Part shown: positions 25,209-59,163 of the stretch, one piece after another
How positions within the stretch are numbered: position 1 is the stretch's first letter
How the letters are laid out: the number at the start of each line of letters is the position of its first letter
IMG/VR virus record: IMGVR_UViG_642973577_000001
Coordinates: 64,001-128,000 of that record
DNA: 64,000 bases
Strand: one strand, 5' to 3'
Source of the DNA: a virus
Taxonomy: Duplodnaviria > Caudoviricetes
Position numbers and translations under genes: made by a program
The notes under the pieces: generated by a model
Database searches by the model: none
The model's input: the letters and a program-made list of their open reading frames with translations, nothing else
What the model was told of the DNA's origin: nothing

Positions 25209-25214
25209 GGCTCA

Positions 25215-25251
25215 ACTATAGCAGTCGACTAGAACCTTTTGCAACCCCTAC
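25215..25251 (-). promoter_or_regulatory. SigA-like promoter GTAGGGG-TTGCAA-N18-TATAGT
   Basis: near-consensus -35 and extended -10 (TGcTATAGT). Confidence 0.75.
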
Positions 25252-27622: not shown

Positions 27623-27655
27623 GGGTTGCACGTCTGACACGGGGTCTGCTACGGT
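27619..27655 (+). promoter_or_regulatory. promoter of tRNA array GTAGGGG-TTGCAC-N18-TACGGT
   Basis: extended -10 TGcTACGGT; same upstream motif as two other promoters. Confidence 0.7.
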
Positions 27656-27662
27656 AGATCCC

Positions 27663-27740
27663 GTGTTTACGATTGCCGATACCACCACGCGAGGGACGCT
27701 CATGCGAGCGGCCTATCGACCGTGGCATATCAAGCACTAG
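27663..27740 (+). CDS. leaderless leader peptide MFTIADTTTRGTLMRAAYRPWHIKH
   Basis: GTG at predicted TSS; in-frame ATG 27702 with GAGGGA SD; atypical codons (3 CGA). Confidence 0.55.
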   Translation: MFTIADTTTRGTLMRAAYRPWHIKH

Positions 27741-27817
27741 TCGTCGCAGCTTTCGAGCCGTGACGACGACCGGCTCGAAGATTCCACACCCGTAGTGGGT
27801 GTTTTCTCCTTGAGCCG
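27740..27817 (+). promoter_or_regulatory. attenuator-like alternative hairpins and terminator
   Basis: 27740-47/27760-67, 27752-60/27771-79 and 27771-78/27810-17 pairings compete; ACACCC-GTAGT-GGGTGT-TTTCT terminator-like. Confidence 0.55.
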
Positions 27818-27831
27818 ACCGGCAGCACAAT

Positions 27832-27903
27832 CGGGATATGGTGTAAGGGTTAGCACGATTGGTTTGGGACCATTCTGACGGGGTTCGAGTCCCTGTTTCC
27901 CGA
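27832..27903 (+). tRNA. tRNA-Pro(TGG)
   Basis: cloverleaf, loop TT-TGG-GA, TTCGAGT T-loop. Confidence 0.85.
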
Positions 27904-27932
27904 CGTACGACAACTGAATAGCACGACCCTAT

Positions 27933-28000
27933 GCAGGTGTGAAGCGGCTTCCCGAAGGATTCCAACCCCTGAGGCGTGGGTTCAACTCCTACCACCTGTG
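27933..28000 (+). tRNA. tRNA-Trp(CCA), miniature D-arm
   Basis: GCAGGTG/CACCTGT acceptor, loop TT-CCA-AC, D-arm GAAG-CGG-CTTC. Confidence 0.7.
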
Positions 28001-28032
28001 CGTAAAGCGTCCAAACCACCTACCATGGTTAG

Positions 28033-28380
28033 ATGGCTTACAAGGACCCGTCAGACCCACGTCTGCTTGAGAAGCGTAGAGCGCATTACTACGCCAACAA
28101 GCAACCGTATCTAGATCGGGCAAAGGCTCAAAGGACAGCGATGTCCGTATGGGCCAGACAACTAAAGAGCGGACCCTGTACTGATTGTGGAGGCACTTTC
28201 CACCATTTTCAGATGGATTGGGATCACATTGGTGACGACAAAGAGTTCGACGTCGGCAAAGCGGTCAGGATAGGGTACGGCAAGAAGCGAATCTTGGCCG
28301 AGATCGCGAAGTGCGAGTTGGTTTGCGCCAACTGCCATCGCCTTCGGACCTGGAGGAGACTTCACCCTGAGGATGAGTAG
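28033..28380 (+). CDS. HNH endonuclease
   Basis: CTDCG..MDWDH..EIAKCELVCANCHRLRT. Confidence 0.88.
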   Translation: MAYKDPSDPRLLEKRRAHYYANKQPYLDRAKAQRTAMSVWARQLKSGPCTDCGGTFHHFQMDWDHIGDDKEFDVGKAVRIGYGKKRILAEIAKCELVCANCHRLRTWRRLHPEDE

Positions 28381-28390
28381 TCCTCGCAAT

Positions 28391-28474
28391 GCCGTGTATG
28401 CCCAACTGGTGTTTGGGAGCAGGCTGTAACCCTGTGGCCTTCGGGACGGCGGAGTTCGATTCTCTGACGCGGCA
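28391..28474 (+). tRNA. tRNA-Tyr(GTA)
   Basis: loop CT-GTA-AC, long variable arm. Confidence 0.88.
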
Positions 28475-28499
28475 CGTTTAATCCCTTGCGGGATTGAAT

Positions 28500-28554
28500 C
28501 GAGCAGAGGTAGCTTCTACCTCAGCTCGTATGAAACTTGAGAACTCCATAGTGT
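28500..28554 (+). promoter_or_regulatory. hairpin followed by rrn boxA-like sequence
   Basis: CGAGC-A-GAGGTAG-CTT-CTACCTC-A-GCTCG hairpin then TTGAGAACTCCATAGTGT. Confidence 0.5.
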
Positions 28555-28613
28555 AGTACTAGAGATCTGGCCAGGCACCATCCTGGCCACAAACCCGGCT
28601 CGTCCGGGTGCGT

Positions 28614-28687
28614 AGCGGGGTAGAGCAGCTCGGTAGCTCGCCAGGCTCATAACCTGGAGGCCGTGGGTTCAAATCCCACTCCCGCCA
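28614..28687 (+). tRNA. tRNA-Met(CAT), initiator-like
   Basis: A1:C72 mismatch, fMet-type D-arm GAGCAGCTCGGTAGCTC. Confidence 0.88.
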
Positions 28688-28690
28688 CTA

Positions 28691-28824
28691 GGTCTCGGGT
28701 CGAGAGAGTCTGTCGGTTATCGCTGGTTCGATTCCTGCCGGGTCCACCCATGGACCCGTCGCTCCATGGCGGAGCACCCAGCTAGCGGCTGGGATTCCGG
28801 CACTCAACACCCATATCCGAGACT
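28691..28824 (+). ncRNA. Y RNA-like (YrlA-type) RNA 1; arm order T-acceptor-D-anticodon
   Basis: 10 bp terminal stem, GGTCGA and GTCGGTTATC/CCGGC motifs enclosing permuted cloverleaf. Confidence 0.75.
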
Positions 28825-28827
28825 TCT

Positions 28828-28900
28828 GGGGATGCATGTTCCTTGGGGGCGACTGATCCTTGCAAGATCGGTGAGGTGGGTTCGATTCCCATCATCTCCA
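28828..28900 (+). tRNA. tRNA-Ala(TGC)
   Basis: G3:U70, loop CT-TGC-AA. Confidence 0.85.
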
Positions 28901-28904
28901 CTTT

Positions 28905-28976
28905 GTGCTGATGGCCGAGATGGTTAGGCACTGGGTTGCAACCCCAGGCACGCAGGTTCGAGTCCTGTTCGGCACT
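28905..28976 (+). tRNA. tRNA-Cys(GCA)
   Basis: loop TT-GCA-AC, U73. Confidence 0.9.
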
Positions 28977-29009
28977 CAAAGCCCCGCTGGAGGCTTCATA
29001 TCCGGCTCT

Positions 29010-29080
29010 GGTCCTATGGGGTAGTGGTAGCCCATCTCCCTCTCACGGAGACGGCCCGAGTTCAATTCTCGGTAGGACTG
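29010..29080 (+). tRNA. tRNA-Glu(CTC)
   Basis: loop CT-CTC-AC, canonical cloverleaf. Confidence 0.9.
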
Positions 29081-29082
29081 CT

Positions 29083-29153
29083 GTGGCCATAGTTCAATGG
29101 CAGAACGCCGGGTTGTGATCCCGGTCGCGAGGGTTCGATTCCCTCTGGTCACC
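29083..29153 (+). tRNA. tRNA-His(GTG)
   Basis: loop TT-GTG-AT, C73; genomic -1 base is T. Confidence 0.9.
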
Positions 29154-29155
29154 CC

Positions 29156-29226
29156 GCGCTCGTGGCATATTGGTTGTGCTCCAGCCTTCCAAGCTGGCTA
29201 AGCAGGTTCGATTCCTGTCGGGCGCT
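29156..29226 (+). tRNA. tRNA-Gly(TCC)
   Basis: loop CT-TCC-AA, U73. Confidence 0.88.
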
Positions 29227-29383
29227 CGCAGTATTCGCAGTATCACCCGCAAGGGGGCGCACCAAGGCTTACCACCTACGCAGGCAGTCGACGGCCTCGA
29301 AACGGTACATGGACCTCCTGGATGTCCTGGGGAGGTGCAACGGGCAAGCCGGAGACTTCACCCGCCGGTCTACAGGGCATCAT

Positions 29384-29456
29384 GGGGCTGTAGCTCAATC
29401 GGTAGAGCGTCTCGCTGGCAGTGAGAAGGCAGTCGGTTCGATCCCGACCAGTTCCA
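29384..29456 (+). tRNA. tRNA-Ala(GGC)
   Basis: G3:U70, loop CT-GGC-AG. Confidence 0.92.
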
Positions 29457-29489
29457 CGTACCGTCTTGAGGCGCGTTAGTCCTCAGCTT

Positions 29490-29561
29490 GCCTTCATAGC
29501 TCAGTTGGTAGAGCGTCGGACTGAAAACCCGGAGGCCGTGGTTCGATTCCACGTGTTGGCA
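29490..29561 (+). tRNA. tRNA-Phe(GAA)
   Basis: loop CT-GAA-AA; two U-U pairs in acceptor. Confidence 0.88.
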
Positions 29562-29565
29562 CAAT

Positions 29566-29633
29566 GCTCCTCTAGTCTGGGACAGAAGTCGGGTCACATC
29601 CGATCGAGCGGGGTTCGATTCCCTGGGGGAGTA
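29566..29633 (+). tRNA. tRNA-Val(CAC), miniature D-arm
   Basis: GTCGG-GTCACAT-CCGAT anticodon arm, normal T-arm, D-arm GTC-TGG-GAC. Confidence 0.65.
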
Positions 29634-29646
29634 CGCAAGATCTAAT

Positions 29647-29720
29647 GGCCCTAGAGCACGGTCTGGTAGTGCTACGGACTCTTAATCCGCAGGTCGTAGG
29701 TTCAAATCCTACTGGGGCCA
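29647..29720 (+). tRNA. tRNA-Lys(CTT)
   Basis: loop CT-CTT-AA. Confidence 0.88.
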
Positions 29721-29731
29721 CTTCACCTTAT

Positions 29732-29804
29732 GCGCTCGTAGCTCAGCTGGTAGAGCTGCTGACTCTTAATCAGCATGTCGGGGGTTCGAGTCCCTCCGGG
29801 CGTA
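29732..29804 (+). tRNA. tRNA-Lys(CTT), second divergent copy
   Basis: loop CT-CTT-AA, canonical. Confidence 0.92.
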
Positions 29805-29818
29805 CGTTAGAATTAGCT

Positions 29819-30124
29819 ATGAGTGCTAATTCTGAGGCCGTGTCTCGTACGCGGCGCAAGCACAAGGCTCTGCTGGTCGCAGAGCACGGTGGCAAGTGTC
29901 TGGACTGCGGGGTCGCTTACCCGCCGTACGTGATGCAGTTCGATCATCGGGACACGACGATGAAGGCCTTCGGCCTGAGCGGCAAGTCCCAAACCTGGTC
30001 ACTCGCCCGGAAACGAGCGGAGGCCGAGAAGTGCGACCTGGTGTGTGCGAATTGCCACGCCATCAGGACGCACAAACAGCGGTGTGGAGGATGCGAACTC
30101 TGCACCAGTGTGCTTGAGGTGTAA
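29819..30124 (+). CDS. HNH endonuclease
   Basis: GGKCLDCG..MQFDH..EAEKCDLVCANCHAIRT; ATG 6 nt after TAGAAT. Confidence 0.85.
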   Translation: MSANSEAVSRTRRKHKALLVAEHGGKCLDCGVAYPPYVMQFDHRDTTMKAFGLSGKSQTWSLARKRAEAEKCDLVCANCHAIRTHKQRCGGCELCTSVLEV

Positions 30125-30182
30125 ATGGTCGCACGACACCTTGCCAAGGTGTAGGAAGCCGGTTCGATCCCGGTCAGGCACT
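30110..30182 (+). tRNA. tRNA-Gly(GCC)
   Basis: loop TT-GCC-AA; overlaps HNH 3' end. Confidence 0.88.
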
Positions 30183-30261
30183 CGTCGCCGTACCGGTTCA
30201 GCCGGTCGCATAGTGAGAAGTGGCAACCTCATCGCTGGCCCAGCGAAACAGGGCACTCGAT

Positions 30262-30336
30262 GGCCTATCGGTCCAGTCTGGAGTGGACACCGCCCTGTCA
30301 CGGCGGAGAGCACGGGTTCAAATCCCGTATAGGTCG
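30262..30336 (+). tRNA. tRNA-Asp(GTC)
   Basis: loop CT-GTC-AC, G73. Confidence 0.9.
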
Positions 30337-30339
30337 CGT

Positions 30340-30414
30340 CGGAGTGTAGCGAGGTTCGATTCCTCGGGGTCCGGGAGAAATCCTTGTCCCGTTGTGTCTG
30401 GCGATGCAGCTCCG
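30340..30414 (+). ncRNA. small T-arm-containing structured RNA (putative)
   Basis: CGGAG/CTCCG closing stem around CGAGG-TTCGATT-CCTCG. Confidence 0.4.
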
Positions 30415-30417
30415 TAT

Positions 30418-30490
30418 GCCTGTGTAGCTCATCTGGCAGAGCGCCCTGCTCATAACGGGGAGGTAAGTGGTTCGAGACCACTCATAGGTA
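30418..30490 (+). tRNA. tRNA-Met(CAT) elongator (or Ile2)
   Basis: loop CT-CAT-AA. Confidence 0.88.
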
Positions 30491-30493
30491 CAA

Positions 30494-30587
30494 GGTGACA
30501 GCGGGACTAGACCCCCGGTGCCCTGCTGCGGCGAAACTTCTGCGCACCGTCTATGCGTGGACCGGTGAAAATCCGGCGCTGTAGCCA
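30494..30587 (+). ncRNA. acceptor/T-loop-like structured RNA (putative)
   Basis: GGTGACAGCG/CGCTGTAGCC stem adjacent to CCGG-TGAAAAT-CCGG hairpin. Confidence 0.4.
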
Positions 30588-30588
30588 A

Positions 30589-30662
30589 GCCTGTTAGCGG
30601 ACTGGTCGTCCGATCCAAGCTGATAACTTGGCGCAAGGAGTGTTCGATTCACTCAGCAGGTA
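30589..30662 (+). tRNA. tRNA-Ile(GAT)
   Basis: CCAAG-CTGATAA-CTTGG anticodon arm. Confidence 0.85.
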
Positions 30663-30663
30663 C

Positions 30664-30803
30664 GTTCGATGGGCCGATGGAATGTCGGTTATCTCCCGCA
30701 GCCAACCTTTGCGGGGTAGCTCAGTTGGTAGAGCGCCACCCTTTAAGGTGGAGGTCGTCGGTTCGAGTCCGATCCCTTTCCGGCTCCGCTCATGCCCATC
30801 AAC
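30664..30803 (+). ncRNA. Y RNA-like RNA 2; arm order acceptor-D-anticodon-T
   Basis: GATGGGC/GCCCATC stem, GGCCGA, GTCGGTTATC/CCGGC; acceptor hairpin with internal G-CCA. Confidence 0.75.
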
Positions 30804-30808
30804 ACAAT

Positions 30809-30881
30809 CTCCCGGTGGTTCAACGGATAGAGCGCCAGACTACGAATCTGGAGAGTGGGGGTTCGATTCCCTCTCGGGAGA
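30809..30881 (+). tRNA. tRNA-Arg(ACG)
   Basis: loop CT-ACG-AA. Confidence 0.9.
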
Positions 30882-30883
30882 CA

Positions 30884-30993
30884 AAGCACGGGCCGATCGG
30901 TCGTCGGTTATCGTTTAACGGAAAAACAATTCACTCATAATGAATCACTCCGGGTTCGAGTCCCGGTTCCGGCTCCATTAAATGCCCGTGTTT
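30884..30993 (+). ncRNA. Y RNA-like RNA 3; D-anticodon(CAT)-T with Y stem as acceptor
   Basis: AAGCACGGGC/GCCCGTGTTT stem, GGCCGA, GTCGGTTATC/CCGGC-TCCA. Confidence 0.7.
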
Positions 30994-30997
30994 CAAT

Positions 30998-31068
30998 GCT
31001 GGATTAGCATAGTGGTAGTGCCCTTCCTTGGTATGGAAGTAGCCGGGGTTCGATTCCCCGATTCAGCT
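30998..31068 (+). tRNA. tRNA-Thr(GGT)
   Basis: loop TT-GGT-AT. Confidence 0.9.
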
Positions 31069-31074
31069 CGCAAT

Positions 31075-31146
31075 GCTCTTGTAGCTCAGTGGTAGAGCAC
31101 CAGCCCGACATGCTGGTTGTCCGAGGTTCGATTCCTCGTTGGAGCA
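31075..31146 (+). tRNA. tRNA-Val(GAC)
   Basis: loop CC-GAC-AT (C33). Confidence 0.85.
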
Positions 31147-31149
31147 CGT

Positions 31150-31284
31150 TGGATGGGTCGACCGCAGGTCGGTTATCTCCTGTCAAGAGGGTGGTCGCGG
31201 GTTCGATTCCCGTCGTCGTTCCTGGAACGGCGTAGCTCAGTGGTAGAGCACCAAAAACACCGGCAGCATCCCCATATCCATCCA
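31150..31284 (+). ncRNA. Y RNA-like RNA 4 (closest to classic YrlA); arm order anticodon-T-acceptor-D
   Basis: TGGATGGGT/ATCCATCCA stem, GGTCGA, GTCGGTTATC/CCGGC; canonical T and D arms flanking closed acceptor hairpin. Confidence 0.8.
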
Positions 31285-31325
31285 TCACCTAGCTCCAGGT
31301 CGCCCTCCGGGACTGGCCTGGCTTT

Positions 31326-31396
31326 GCCTCCATCGTTCAGTGGTAGGACGCCTGCCTTGTAAGCAGGCTGCGGGCGTTCGATTCGTCCTGGAGGCT
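31326..31396 (+). tRNA. tRNA-Thr(TGT)
   Basis: loop CT-TGT-AA. Confidence 0.9.
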
Positions 31397-31402
31397 CTCT
31401 AT

Positions 31403-31476
31403 GGTTCGGTGGTCTGCTGGCTGTGCCACTCAGGTTTTCACCCTGGGATACGCGGGTTCGATTCCCGTCCGAACTA
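31403..31476 (+). tRNA. tRNA-Glu(TTC)
   Basis: loop TT-TTC-AC; weak D stem. Confidence 0.8.
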
Positions 31477-31560
31477 CGGTGGGGGAGGCAGCAGTCGAGA
31501 GCTGTCCCGTTCGGGGCTACCAAGCACCCGGCGGTGGGCGCAGGCACTCCCCCTCCCAGT

Positions 31561-31633
31561 GCTGGTGAAGCGTGAACGGTTTACGCACGGCCCTCGTAAC
31601 GCCGAGAAGTCGGTTCGACTCCGACCTCCAGCT
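31561..31633 (+). tRNA. tRNA-Thr(CGT)
   Basis: loop CT-CGT-AA. Confidence 0.85.
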
Positions 31634-31697
31634 CCCTGGCTTGGGATGGCAGGCCGATCTGTACCGTGTCGGCGGGCAATACCGACACCATCCCTCT

Positions 31698-31767
31698 ACC
31701 CTCGCCAGCGGACCTGGCGTGAGGCCTCCGACGCCACACTGCGGGAGTTCGACTCTCTCCGGGGGTG
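31698..31767 (+). tRNA. tRNA-Arg(CCG), atypical D-arm
   Basis: ACCCTCG/CGGGGGT acceptor, loop CT-CCG-AC, T-loop TTCGACT. Confidence 0.65.
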
Positions 31768-31796
31768 CTTTCCGGCACAGGGGGTACACTCTCCTT

Positions 31797-32198
31797 GTGA
31801 CGACTCAAGCACGACGCGATTACATGCGCGAGTACCAGCGCAAGTGGAAGGCCCAGCGCCGTGCTGACTACTTCGCCGACAAGGCCTGCGTACGGTGCGG
31901 GTCCACCGAGAACCTCCGGCTCGATCACATCGACCCGGCCAAGAAGGTGGACCACAAGATCTGGACGTGGAGCCAGGAACGCCGCGAGGCCGAGCTGGAA
32001 AAGTGCCAGGTGCTCTGTCAGCCCTGTCACGACGCGAAGACCGCCGAGGACATGGGGTGGAAGCTCTGCGGCACCAAGCGGGCCTACAACAACGGCTGCC
32101 GCGAGGCACCGTGCAGGCTCGCGAACACCGAACACAGGCGCAAGATGCGCGCCCAGAAGGCCGCTGTAGCTCATGCGGACAGAGCGACCGTTTCCTAA
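31797..32198 (+). CDS. HNH endonuclease
   Basis: CVRCGSTENLRLDHIDP..KCQVLCQPCHDAKT; GTG 7 nt after TACACT. Confidence 0.88.
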   Translation: MTTQARRDYMREYQRKWKAQRRADYFADKACVRCGSTENLRLDHIDPAKKVDHKIWTWSQERREAELEKCQVLCQPCHDAKTAEDMGWKLCGTKRAYNNGCREAPCRLANTEHRRKMRAQKAAVAHADRATVS

Positions 32199-32233
32199 AC
32201 GGTAGGCAGGGGGTTCGAGTCCTCCCAGCGGTG
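32160..32233 (+). tRNA. tRNA-Arg(CCT)
   Basis: loop TT-CCT-AA; contains the HNH stop codon. Confidence 0.9.
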
Positions 32234-32266
32234 CTTGGATCTGGTACTACACTGTGGCGTTCCCAT

Positions 32267-32339
32267 TGAGGTGTGGTCTGCTGGCAGGCCAGCGGGCCTT
32301 TGACCCCCGCCTCCGTAGGTTCGATTCCTGCCACCTCAG
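32267..32339 (+). tRNA. tRNA-Gln(TTG)
   Basis: U1:A72, G73, loop CT-TTG-AC. Confidence 0.8.
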
Positions 32340-32340
32340 C

Positions 32341-32416
32341 GCCTCTGTAGCTCAGTGGATAGAGCACCGAGTTTCTACCTCGGGTGCCGGGAGTTCGATC
32401 CTCTCCAGGGGCACCA
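32341..32416 (+). tRNA. tRNA-Arg(TCT)
   Basis: loop TT-TCT-AC, encoded CCA. Confidence 0.92.
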
Positions 32417-32418
32417 TG

Positions 32419-32491
32419 GGGGCGTTGGTGAACGCGGCTATCACTCTTGGCTTTTACCCTTGAATACCGGGATCGAGACCCGGACGCCCCA
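32419..32491 (+). tRNA. tRNA-Lys(TTT)
   Basis: loop CT-TTT-AC, weak anticodon stem, ATCGAGA T-loop. Confidence 0.7.
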
Positions 32492-32492
32492 C

Positions 32493-58446: not shown

Positions 58447-58477
58447 TTGACCGGGAGACCCCGGAGTGTGCTACAGT
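58447..58477 (+). promoter_or_regulatory. promoter TTGACC..TGcTACAGT of Gln/Asn tRNA locus
   Basis: extended -10; ATG at predicted TSS; spacer is long (19 nt). Confidence 0.65.
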
Positions 58478-58484
58478 CGTCCTC

Positions 58485-58517
58485 ATGCGTACCAACCGCC
58501 TGAATCGACAGCAGTAG
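58485..58517 (+). CDS. leaderless leader peptide MRTNRLNRQQ
   Basis: ATG 8 nt after -10; AAC, AAT, CAG, CAG codons. Confidence 0.6.
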   Translation: MRTNRLNRQQ

Positions 58518-58540
58518 CCCTCCGGGGTCTACTGCGTCTT
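58507..58540 (+). terminator. attenuator hairpin overlapping leader stop codon
   Basis: GAC-A-GCAGTAG-CCC..GGG-T-CTACTGC-GTC; only a short pyrimidine tail. Confidence 0.55.
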
Positions 58541-58544
58541 CTAG

Positions 58545-58615
58545 TGCCTGTTGGTGTAATGGCAACACGCCGGTTTCTGACACCGGTATTCTTGGTTCGA
58601 GTCCAGGGCGGGCAG
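58545..58615 (+). tRNA. tRNA-Gln(CTG)
   Basis: loop TT-CTG-AC, U1:A72, G73. Confidence 0.92.
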
Positions 58616-58635
58616 CTCTTCCCCTAGCGGGATGA

Positions 58636-58709
58636 TGGTCACTAGCTCAATTAGGCAGAGCAACGCCCTGTTAAGGCGTCAGGTGAAGGTTCGAGTCCTT
58701 CGTGGCCAG
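58636..58709 (+). tRNA. tRNA-Asn(GTT)
   Basis: loop CT-GTT-AA, U1:A72, G73. Confidence 0.92.
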
Positions 58710-59163
58710 CTTGAAAACCTGTTCGCGCTGCAAAGTCGAGAAGCCCAGGTCTGAGTTCCACAGGTGGAGCAAGGCCAAGGACGGGCTGAATCATCACTGC
58801 AAGGACTGCGTGAGCGACAAGGCCAAGGCTCGGTATCGGCGTAGCCCGGAGTGGCGCGCCAAGCTCGTCGAGAACGCCATCGAGCGCCGCAAGAAGCTCC
58901 AGCAGTACGCTTTCACGTATCTGACCGAGCACCCGTGCGTCGATTGTGGTGAGACTGATCCGATCGTCCTGGAGTTCGATCACGTGCGTGGTGAGAAGGT
59001 TCGAGCCATCTCGTCGATGCTCGGAAACGGCGGCTCCCTGGACCGACTCAAGGAGGAGATCGCCAAGTGCGACGTCCGGTGCGCTAACTGCCACGCTCGC
59101 GTGACGGCCCGCAGAAACGGGCGGTATTGGAAGCTGGCGTTTATCCCTGTAGTATCTGTATAG
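58702..59163 (+). CDS. HNH endonuclease with N-terminal zinc finger
   Basis: KTCSRC..CKDC, CVDCGETDPIVLEFDH..KCDVRCANCH; start GTG 58702 or TTG 58711. Confidence 0.88.
   Translation: MASLKTCSRCKVEKPRSEFHRWSKAKDGLNHHCKDCVSDKAKARYRRSPEWRAKLVENAIERRKKLQQYAFTYLTEHPCVDCGETDPIVLEFDHVRGEKVRAISSMLGNGGSLDRLKEEIAKCDVRCANCHARVTARRNGRYWKLAFIPVVSV

Follow-up and report, generated by a model that had tools for sequence, protein, structure and literature searches.

A short reading frame in front of the Gln/Asn tRNA pair

The DNA analyzed here is a 64,000-nucleotide stretch of IMG/VR record IMGVR_UViG_642973577_000001 (hereafter the window), comprising bases 64001-128000 of a 164,602-bp phage genome, and the element in question is a very short open reading frame (ORF) that lies directly upstream of two tRNA genes, tRNA-Gln and tRNA-Asn. 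The nearest named relatives of this phage are the Mycobacterium phages Phabba and ScoobyDoobyDoo (hereafter Scooby) of the genus Myrnavirus, and about 200 Bxz1-like phages (Bixzunavirus) are more distant relatives; all of these belong to Ceeclamvirinae and have M. smegmatis as the host. Exact-motif scans of IMG/VR recovered the known relatives and one new 167-kb contig, G001. Plain coordinates below are those of the window, 'genome' coordinates are those of the whole 164.6-kb record, and one genome segment carries its own numbering (L017:1031-1039 = genome 33030-33038, outside the window). The Gln/Asn unit has the following parts.

58447-58452, + strand: -35-like hexamer TTGACC of the inferred promoter
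58469-58477, + strand: extended -10, TGC followed by TACAGT, 'class 2' promoter motif TGCTACAGT
58485-58517, + strand: predicted leaderless leader ORF MRTNRLNRQQ, 10 codons plus TAG (58515-17)
58507-58538, + strand: stem-loop of 13 bp with two single-nt bulges, CGA CAG CAG TAG in its 5' arm (RNAfold)
58545-58616, + strand: tRNA-Gln, anticodon CTG (ARAGORN; Rfam RF00005, 49.8 bits)
58636-58710, + strand: tRNA-Asn, anticodon GTT (ARAGORN; Rfam RF00005, 62.2 bits)

The first-pass annotation had described a promoter, an ATG at the predicted transcription start, a short ORF and two tRNAs, and all of them are present as described, the start being a predicted one. TTGACC and TACAGT (58472-77) are separated by a 19-nt spacer, with TGC (58469-71) immediately 5' of TACAGT. 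The ATG at 58485 is located 7 nt 3' of the -10, with no Shine-Dalgarno sequence 5' of it, and the gap from the stop codon to tRNA-Gln is only 27 nt; neither an ORF nor a ribosome-binding site lies in the part 3' of the stem. The extended -10 is invariant in 13/13 genomes read; the position of the hexamer is kept in Phabba and G001 (as TTGAC) and is weaker in Bxz1-like phages (TGGACC). From this promoter geometry, transcription would start at the ATG or GTG of the leader itself. The internal codons of the leader are CGT ACC AAC CGC CTG AAT CGA CAG CAG, in which Asn codons occupy positions 4 and 7 and Gln codons positions 9 and 10, making four of the nine internal codons Asn or Gln. CAG CAG are the final two sense codons, two candidate sensor codons in a row.

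Four tRNA units with one promoter geometry

The whole genome was searched with a regular expression (TTG at about -35, TGNTANNNT, 5-8 nt, then ATG or GTG), which gave 15 matches: ten of a protein-gene class, four of a tRNA-unit class and one belonging to neither. The ten protein-gene matches have TGCTA[GT]A[ACG]T, 6 nt and ATG, followed by ORFs of 53-230 aa, and because ten protein ORFs have their ATG at the predicted start in this way, leaderless genes appear to be routine in this phage. The other class has TGCTAC[AG]GT, 7 nt and ATG or GTG, followed by an ORF of 1-25 codons and then tRNAs, and its four matches are every tRNA unit or cluster of the genome.

genome 32382: promoter match of the Ser/Leu tRNA unit
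genome 33014: promoter match of the unit with a PTH2-family gene and tRNA(cta)
genome 91647 (window 27647): promoter match of the 29-tRNA array
genome 122469 (window 58469): promoter match of the Gln/Asn unit

The 9-mer TGCTACAGT or TGCTACGGT stands 5' of all four units, with a start codon 6-7 nt from the -10 throughout these units and the lineages read. The same regular expression found no internal promoters with leaders inside the arrays of the source genome and I3. Shell et al. 2015 (PMC4633059) report that in M. smegmatis an ATG or GTG at the RNA 5' end is both required and enough for translation.

The first-pass annotation had also pointed to a parallel layout at 27663, and this layout is real: TGC-TACGGT, 7 nt, GTG, 25 codons, TAG, hairpins and tRNA-Pro. 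The parts of the array unit, and the leader elements of the two units outside the window, are as follows.

27626-27655, + strand: array promoter, TTGCAC, 18-nt spacer including TGC, TACGGT; conserved in Phabba, Scooby and G001
27663-27740, + strand: predicted leaderless array leader ORF of 25 codons, VFTIADTTTRGTLMRAAYRPWHIKH plus TAG
27740-27767, + strand: hairpin starting at the G of the leader TAG (RNAfold)
27771-27817, + strand: composite stem enclosing a terminator-like hairpin (27786-27802), then a T-rich tail (RNAfold, z -4.26)
27832-32492, + strand: tRNA array with 29 default ARAGORN calls, tRNA-Pro(tgg) to tRNA-Lys(ttt)
genome 32398-32442: predicted leaderless Ser/Leu leader ORF of 14 codons, MFALLSLSSSLRLS
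genome 33030-33038, outside the window: RTG-TAG-RTG 9-mer behind a promoter of TGCTACAGT type

Relaxed ARAGORN adds three candidates inside the array, Trp(cca), Asp(gtc) and Arg(ccg), at 27933-28001, 31146-31222 and 31694-31768, and the Trp(cca) candidate is colinear with the relatives. A weak tmRNA-like Rfam match at 27954-27997 overlaps the Trp(cca) candidate, and one ARAGORN call inside the array, at 30710-30781, has an anticodon of two bases (tt).

The PTH2 unit, named for a gene assigned to the PTH2 family of peptidyl-tRNA hydrolases by Pfam PF01981, begins GTG TAG GTG, that is, a start codon at the predicted +1, an amber codon and the in-frame start of the PTH2 gene, with tRNA(cta) downstream. 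The 9-mer is kept in Phabba, Scooby, G001 and I3 with differing flanks, and in I3 (I3 genome 93747) it is preceded by TTGACA, 18 nt, TACTGT and 6 nt. The amber-anticodon tRNA(CTA) itself (L017:1523-1594) is conserved even though TAG ends 23/57 high-confidence ORFs of the phage, and TAG also ends 7/10 of the leaderless protein-class genes.

Leader codons match the tRNAs downstream

Empirical p-values were obtained from windows of the phage's own sequence under two nulls, one of in-frame gene windows and the other of any-frame windows. In the Gln/Asn leader, four of the nine internal codons had been noticed to be those read by tRNA-Gln(CTG) and tRNA-Asn(GTT), and at least four cognate codons in nine turned out to be more than expected by chance (p 0.0036 for gene windows and 0.0009 for any-frame windows).

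The Ser/Leu leader precedes tRNA-Ser(gct), Ser(cga), Leu(cag), Leu(gag) and Leu(caa). Among them, Ser(cga) is a class-II tRNA with the anticodon CGA between Ser(gct) and Leu(cag) (L017:564-647) that was missed by default ARAGORN; it is detected by relaxed ARAGORN in 5/6 lineages, is colinear with the relatives, and its place has a weak Rfam score with the long-arm tRNA model (29.3 bits). Ten of the 13 sense codons of this leader are Ser or Leu, a content found in 0/50,000 gene windows and at 2e-5 in any-frame windows. The consecutive codons CTC, CTG, AGT and TTG are one codon each for four different tRNAs, and CTT and TCG come later, giving a cognate codon for every tRNA of the cluster. With only the four default tRNAs counted, such complete representation has p 8e-4 under either null; with five tRNAs it occurs in 0/200,000 gene windows and at 2.2e-4 in any-frame windows. 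The first-pass annotation had proposed that leader codons should change with the tRNAs that follow, at any Ser/Leu locus too, and they do so at this unit, where all five tRNAs are represented; since the unit lies outside the window, the match is an out-of-sample outcome for that earlier prediction.

The match is to the leader's own cluster. The Ser/Leu leader has 0/13 Gln/Asn-cognate and 3/13 array-cognate codons, the Gln/Asn leader 1/9 Ser/Leu-cognate codons, and the off-diagonal matches of the array leader are 1/24 and 0/24. Enrichment in codons of the regulated tRNAs, as expected of an attenuator leader, was thus found with p 4e-3 to <5e-6. The amber codon before tRNA(CTA) would be a fourth codon/tRNA match, one standing outside these statistics.

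The leader codons have no bias in GC content at the third position (GC3), and many of them are rare. One of these, the Arg codon CGA, accounts for 5/46 sense codons of the three leaders and 5/7 of the leader Arg codons (58506-58508, 27687-27689, 27705-27707, 27717-27719 and L017:432-434). CGA makes up 0.5% of high-confidence gene codons (p 5e-6) but 2.9% of any-frame triplets (p 0.01), and it may be a deliberate slow codon or a mere reflection of the absent codon bias. The TAG ending shared by all leaders was considered as a signal and rejected as not significant, because TAG ends 23/57 high-confidence ORFs.

The leaders are kept in frame

The Gln/Asn leader is intact in 13/13 genomes read, Myrna-like and Bxz1-like, in four variants.

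Source genome and Phabba: MRTNRLNRQQ, 10 codons
Scooby: MRTNVNRQQ, 9 codons
G001: MFTTAMNRQQ, 10 codons
Nine Bxz1-like genomes: MRTSSQQNRQQ, 11 codons

With peptides of 9, 10, 10 and 11 codons, all indels are therefore multiples of 3. The 5' half is variable, NRQQ and the stop codon are fixed, and the insertion in the Bxz1-like phages adds two CAG codons, making four CAG in total. The proposal of the first-pass annotation depended on the ORF being conserved, and its frame is indeed kept across lineages with 3-nt indels only. A 76-nt Gln/Asn leader query matched 205 phage records at 80% coverage or more, with no annotated feature beneath the leader among the 25 matches listed.

The Ser/Leu leader is intact in 6/6 genomes read, with one codon being CTC or CGC and position 3 being GCA or ACA, and it matches 195 records at 90-99% identity, where it is unannotated. 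The array leader is in frame in 4/4 Myrna-like genomes. Its start codon is GTG in the source phage and ATG in three relatives, at a constant 7 nt from the -10; the ORFs differ further by one 3-nt indel, by several non-synonymous substitutions and at their 3' ends. In I3, a non-alignable 22-codon leaderless ORF takes the same position, with Pro, Trp and Tyr codons before tRNA-Pro, Trp and Tyr. Because the peptides are not conserved as proteins, it seems that translation, not its product, is what is kept; a micropeptide function is ruled out by the lack of residue conservation. Among 18 GC-rich candidates from loose pattern scans of viral and metagenome contigs, none of the matches listed was real, all being chance matches.

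Stems at the leader stop codons

The ~13 bp hairpin reported earlier, with the last codons and the stop in its 5' arm, is returned by RNAfold as the 13-bp stem at 58507-58538. The whole Gln/Asn leader has a minimum free energy of -22.9 kcal/mol (z -3.36; 1/200 shuffles as good), and the core stem (58511-58535) is invariant except for a single C-to-T substitution in some Bxz1-like phages, where a G-U pair results. A stable stem contains or abuts the stop codon in every leader (z -2.8 to -4.3): the stop is in the 5' arm in the Gln/Asn leader, the Ser/Leu leader has it in the 3' arm of the first of two stems (7 bp, then a 6-bp GC stem), and the array leader stem starts at the G of TAG, where a non-homologous hairpin starts in G001 too. 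The I3 array leader folds weaker (z -1.47). Since the stems are almost invariant, covariation says nothing either way, and the three leader regions match no Rfam family beyond tRNA-type models with E up to 1.

No intrinsic terminator is called in the Ser/Leu unit. The terminator-like site (27786-27802) is found only in the array leader of the source genome, where the scan gives 2 overlapping calls against 0.5 expected, and its tail is less U-rich in relatives. When ribosome footprints were imposed on the folds, a ribosome whose A site holds Asn7, Gln9 or Gln10 covered the 5' arm of the Gln/Asn stem, and the folds of the Ser/Leu and array leaders contain partly overlapping stems. In addition, 9 nt of the Ser/Leu leader (L017:420-428) are complementary to positions 1-9 of tRNA-Ser(gct) (L017:467-475), and in the unconstrained fold of leader plus tRNA this 9-bp pairing replaces the acceptor stem (p 0.039 versus shuffles).

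A proposed sensor of decoding capacity

With the anatomy, the codon match, its statistics and the conservation established, we infer the start, translation, direction of response and output step as follows. A dedicated promoter of the TGCTACAGT type would put an ATG or GTG at the first transcribed base of each tRNA unit, and the mycobacterial host would translate such an RNA without a leader. The ribosome would then read an ORF of 1-25 codons whose make-up suits the tRNAs that follow it: Asn/Gln codons before the Gln/Asn tRNAs, Ser/Leu codons before the five Ser/Leu tRNAs, and amber before tRNA(CTA). If the cognate charged tRNAs were short, the ribosome would linger on the last sense codons and cover the stem at the stop codon, and the output of the downstream tRNAs would rise; if they were plentiful, the ribosome would terminate and leave, and the stem would form. 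Candidates for the output step are hairpin-dependent pausing or weak termination, access of Rho or RNase to the one unstructured stretch of the precursor RNA, and processing or stability of the precursor.

We put at about an even chance this reading, in which each tRNA unit is led by a leaderless, codon-matched sensor ORF of decoding capacity acting homeostatically. Its input is the best-supported part: we can explain codon match and placement only by decoding being sensed, and sensing through translation of codon-matched leaders is well supported by the statistics, translation itself being predicted from the sequence. The wider form, a 'tRNA ribulon' in which cluster-C mycobacteriophages (Ceeclamvirinae) autoregulate every tRNA operon by its own leaderless sensor ORF, including a start-amber mini-ORF for the suppressor tRNA(CTA), is more tentative and falls somewhat short of even. 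Mycobacteria make Gln-tRNA and Asn-tRNA via GatCAB, and Ser and Leu tRNAs are of the long-arm class; both would fit the grouping into units.

A number of results weigh against the sensor model, and those on the output step are the most direct. A U-tract is missing behind the Gln/Asn stem in all lineages, and the stem is not called by the terminator scan, in agreement with the weak U-tail noted from the start (tail TTCTAGTG). As far as is known, mycobacterial RNA polymerase needs a U-tract, or NusG help, and simple terminator occlusion is unlikely at the Gln/Asn unit because the U-tract is missing. The footprint-constrained folds of the Gln/Asn leader lose the stem with no competing antiterminator stem, and a ribosome at the stop codon covers the same 5' arm as a stalled one. 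Furthermore, with a leaderless ORF of 33 nt the ribosome would be close behind RNA polymerase in both states, which would make a simple terminator switch kinetically awkward. The suggestion that a stalled ribosome blocks a terminator hairpin is thus unsupported as it was written.

There are other adverse points. The consensus promoter scan gives no call at the Gln/Asn promoter or at the promoters of the other tRNA units, and the promoter assignment is made because the motif recurs and is conserved. In the array leader, 22/24 codons are cognate to array tRNAs (23/24 if the relaxed tRNA-Trp call is counted), a weak excess against gene codon usage (p 0.065); its codon content is only consistent with the sensing idea, and in the I3 array leader 6/22 codons are not cognate to the array. 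All 16 nt over AAT CGA CAG CAG TAG are fixed, synonymous sites included, and the Ser/Leu leader hardly varies; such nucleotide invariance makes constraint on codons inseparable from constraint on RNA structure, and compensatory changes are absent. Only about 4-5 independent lineages stand behind the conservation results. No leaderless codon-matched ORF was found upstream of four other actinophage tRNA clusters (CosmicSans, Anansi, JSwag and GodonK); GodonK has a promoter-like site upstream of its cluster, with no start codon at the expected +1.

Alternative explanations

The alternative that survives best, although we regard it as unlikely, is that the leaders are translated without sensing particular tRNAs and serve insulation or anti-termination rather than feedback. 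The ribosome would melt the stem at the stop codon or shield the one unstructured part of the precursor from Rho and RNases, and untranslated read-through RNA from the upstream gene would be stopped or processed at the stem. This fits the setting well: no terminator separates the tRNA promoters from the upstream genes, whose stop codons they adjoin or overlap, the stems sit at the stop codons, no Shine-Dalgarno sequence precedes the leader ATG, and the geometry is common to the 10 leaderless protein genes. However, insulation leaves unexplained why the codons match the leader's own cluster and not the other clusters, and why the Bxz1-like insertion adds two CAG codons.

Rather more doubtful is the possibility that the small ORFs are incidental to a conserved DNA site or structured RNA in the 5' leader. 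That element could be a signal for tRNA-precursor processing or stability, a pause or termination site, or a protein-binding site, and it would account for nucleotides invariant even at synonymous positions, for leaders folding better than shuffles (z -2.8 to -4.3), and for leaders with unbiased GC3, many rare codons and peptides unconserved as proteins. A protein operator common to the three units is improbable, given that their stems have no sequence in common. More generally, an incidental ORF is difficult to reconcile with a start codon at the predicted start in four units and every lineage read, with ATG/GTG exchanges, with indels only in threes, and with a codon/tRNA match of p 1e-3 to 1e-5 per unit even against any-frame windows; moreover, no Rfam family matches.

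The direction of the response could also be reversed, which we consider improbable, a shade more so than an incidental ORF. In such a feed-forward scheme, fast decoding of the cognate codons would keep the lead ribosome close enough to RNA polymerase to open the stem in time, and phage tRNA synthesis would accelerate once the first phage tRNAs appear. The anatomy is the same as in the sensor model, only a closely following ribosome would be able to prevent the stem from forming co-transcriptionally, and decoding of the amber codon, the second codon of the PTH2 unit, would require tRNA(CTA). On the other hand, cognate codons are concentrated towards the 3' end of the Gln/Asn ORF, and a ribosome stalled there covers the stem as well; known leader-peptide systems are homeostatic, which we count against the positive direction.

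Finally, ribosome-free pairing of leader codons with anticodons, like a T-box specifier, or of the leader with the acceptor 5' strand of the first tRNA, is very improbable: the 9-bp complement between the Ser/Leu ORF and tRNA-Ser is used in the unconstrained fold, but pairing with the first tRNA is rejected as a general output by its lack of significance in the Gln/Asn (p 0.27) and array (p 0.77) leaders, no T-box or other Rfam model matches with E up to 1, the leaders, 60-170 nt, have no T-box architecture, and the start codon at +1 and the kept frame would be left unexplained.

Relation to known systems

Classical ribosome-mediated attenuators include trpL, hisL, leuL, pheL and thrL, and pheM before pheST. 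Like them, the phage leaders have a short ORF rich in the monitored codons with RNA stems after it, and in the sensor model proposed here the stall position would decide the RNA fold, with the act of translation, not the peptide, being what matters. Unlike them, the phage leaders appear leaderless with 1-25 codons, they would control tRNA genes instead of biosynthesis or synthetase genes, and the Gln/Asn unit has no 1:2 / 2:3 / 3:4 alternative pairing and a stem without a U-tract.

The closest known system is the set of leaderless poly-Cys short ORFs (sORFs) of mycobacteria. The 'Cys ribulon' sORFs of M. smegmatis are reported (Canestrari et al., 10.1101/834739) to be stall sensors for which two consecutive codons suffice, and attenuation works by unmasking a ribosome-binding site, a mechanism which is therefore inapplicable to tRNA genes. 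The likeness lies in the host genus, in a predicted leaderless sORF placed first in the transcript, in consecutive candidate sensor codons and, under the sensor model, in a stalled ribosome that blocks an RNA duplex and in several loci coordinated by one tRNA pool; the differences are that the sensors here are phage-encoded and that the regulated product would be the sensed molecule itself. The phage element thus fails the defining output features of both the Cys sORFs and the classical attenuators.

Three other types of element share part of this anatomy. T-boxes bind uncharged tRNA without a ribosome, have conserved motifs in a length of at least ~200 nt, and act on synthetase or amino-acid genes; the phage leaders would similarly be leader RNAs that use a codon-like specifier to report how much of a particular tRNA is available, but they have no Rfam T-box match. 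The stall-controlled Rho-dependent attenuators tnaC, mgtL and corL have long unstructured rut regions. As in these, a ribosome held near the end of the phage leader ORF would hide RNA beside the stop codon, whereas from the phage leader stop to the first tRNA there are just 27-90 nt, mostly paired. Start-stop mini-ORFs and termination-reinitiation are also a known type, which the RTG-TAG-RTG of the PTH2/tRNA(CTA) unit resembles in its order of start, stop and real ORF start, but this mini-ORF would be leaderless, is in frame with the downstream ORF, and has as its stop the codon of the suppressor tRNA in the same unit.

To our knowledge, no leader-peptide attenuation controlling tRNA genes is known. 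Literature searches at the abstract level and a term search of the main text of PMC3029335 brought up no leader ORFs before phage tRNA genes. If the sensor model is true, the phage would gauge the functional supply of particular tRNAs by means of the ribosome and feed this back on their genes, which would explain why the Gln/Asn and Ser/Leu units are separate with promoters of their own. In the wider ribulon form it would detect failed decoding for each codon family, for example upon cleavage or depletion of host tRNAs, and replace exactly the missing tRNAs; tRNA genes would then be seen under leader-peptide control for the first time, with the operon product as the sensed ligand. The sensor model would bear on why large phages carry tRNA sets and link these to host defences that cleave or deplete tRNAs, and the leaders could be used as compact codon-specific stall reporters for mycobacteria. 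The leader elements are 60-170 nt long and unannotated in ~200 sequenced genomes, and the host is a laboratory strain that is easy to work with.

Neighbouring and additional features

Downstream of the Gln/Asn unit there is a 153-aa ORF with paired CxxC motifs (58702-59163, + strand), whose GTG start overlaps the last 9 nt of tRNA-Asn and which has no Pfam match. In some Bxz1-like phages, an annotated HNH endonuclease adjoins the Gln/Asn tRNA pair. The full promoter pattern of the protein-gene class is TTGCRC, a spacer with TTCTAG, TGCTA[GT]A[ACG]T, 6 nt and ATG, and the genes behind it look leaderless.

25213-25223, - strand: site of the protein-gene promoter class in the window
genome 3004, 3836, 4599, 9336, 52020, 56691, 57036, 134114 and 134641: sites of the same class outside the window

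Five of the ten ORFs of this class begin with MSN.

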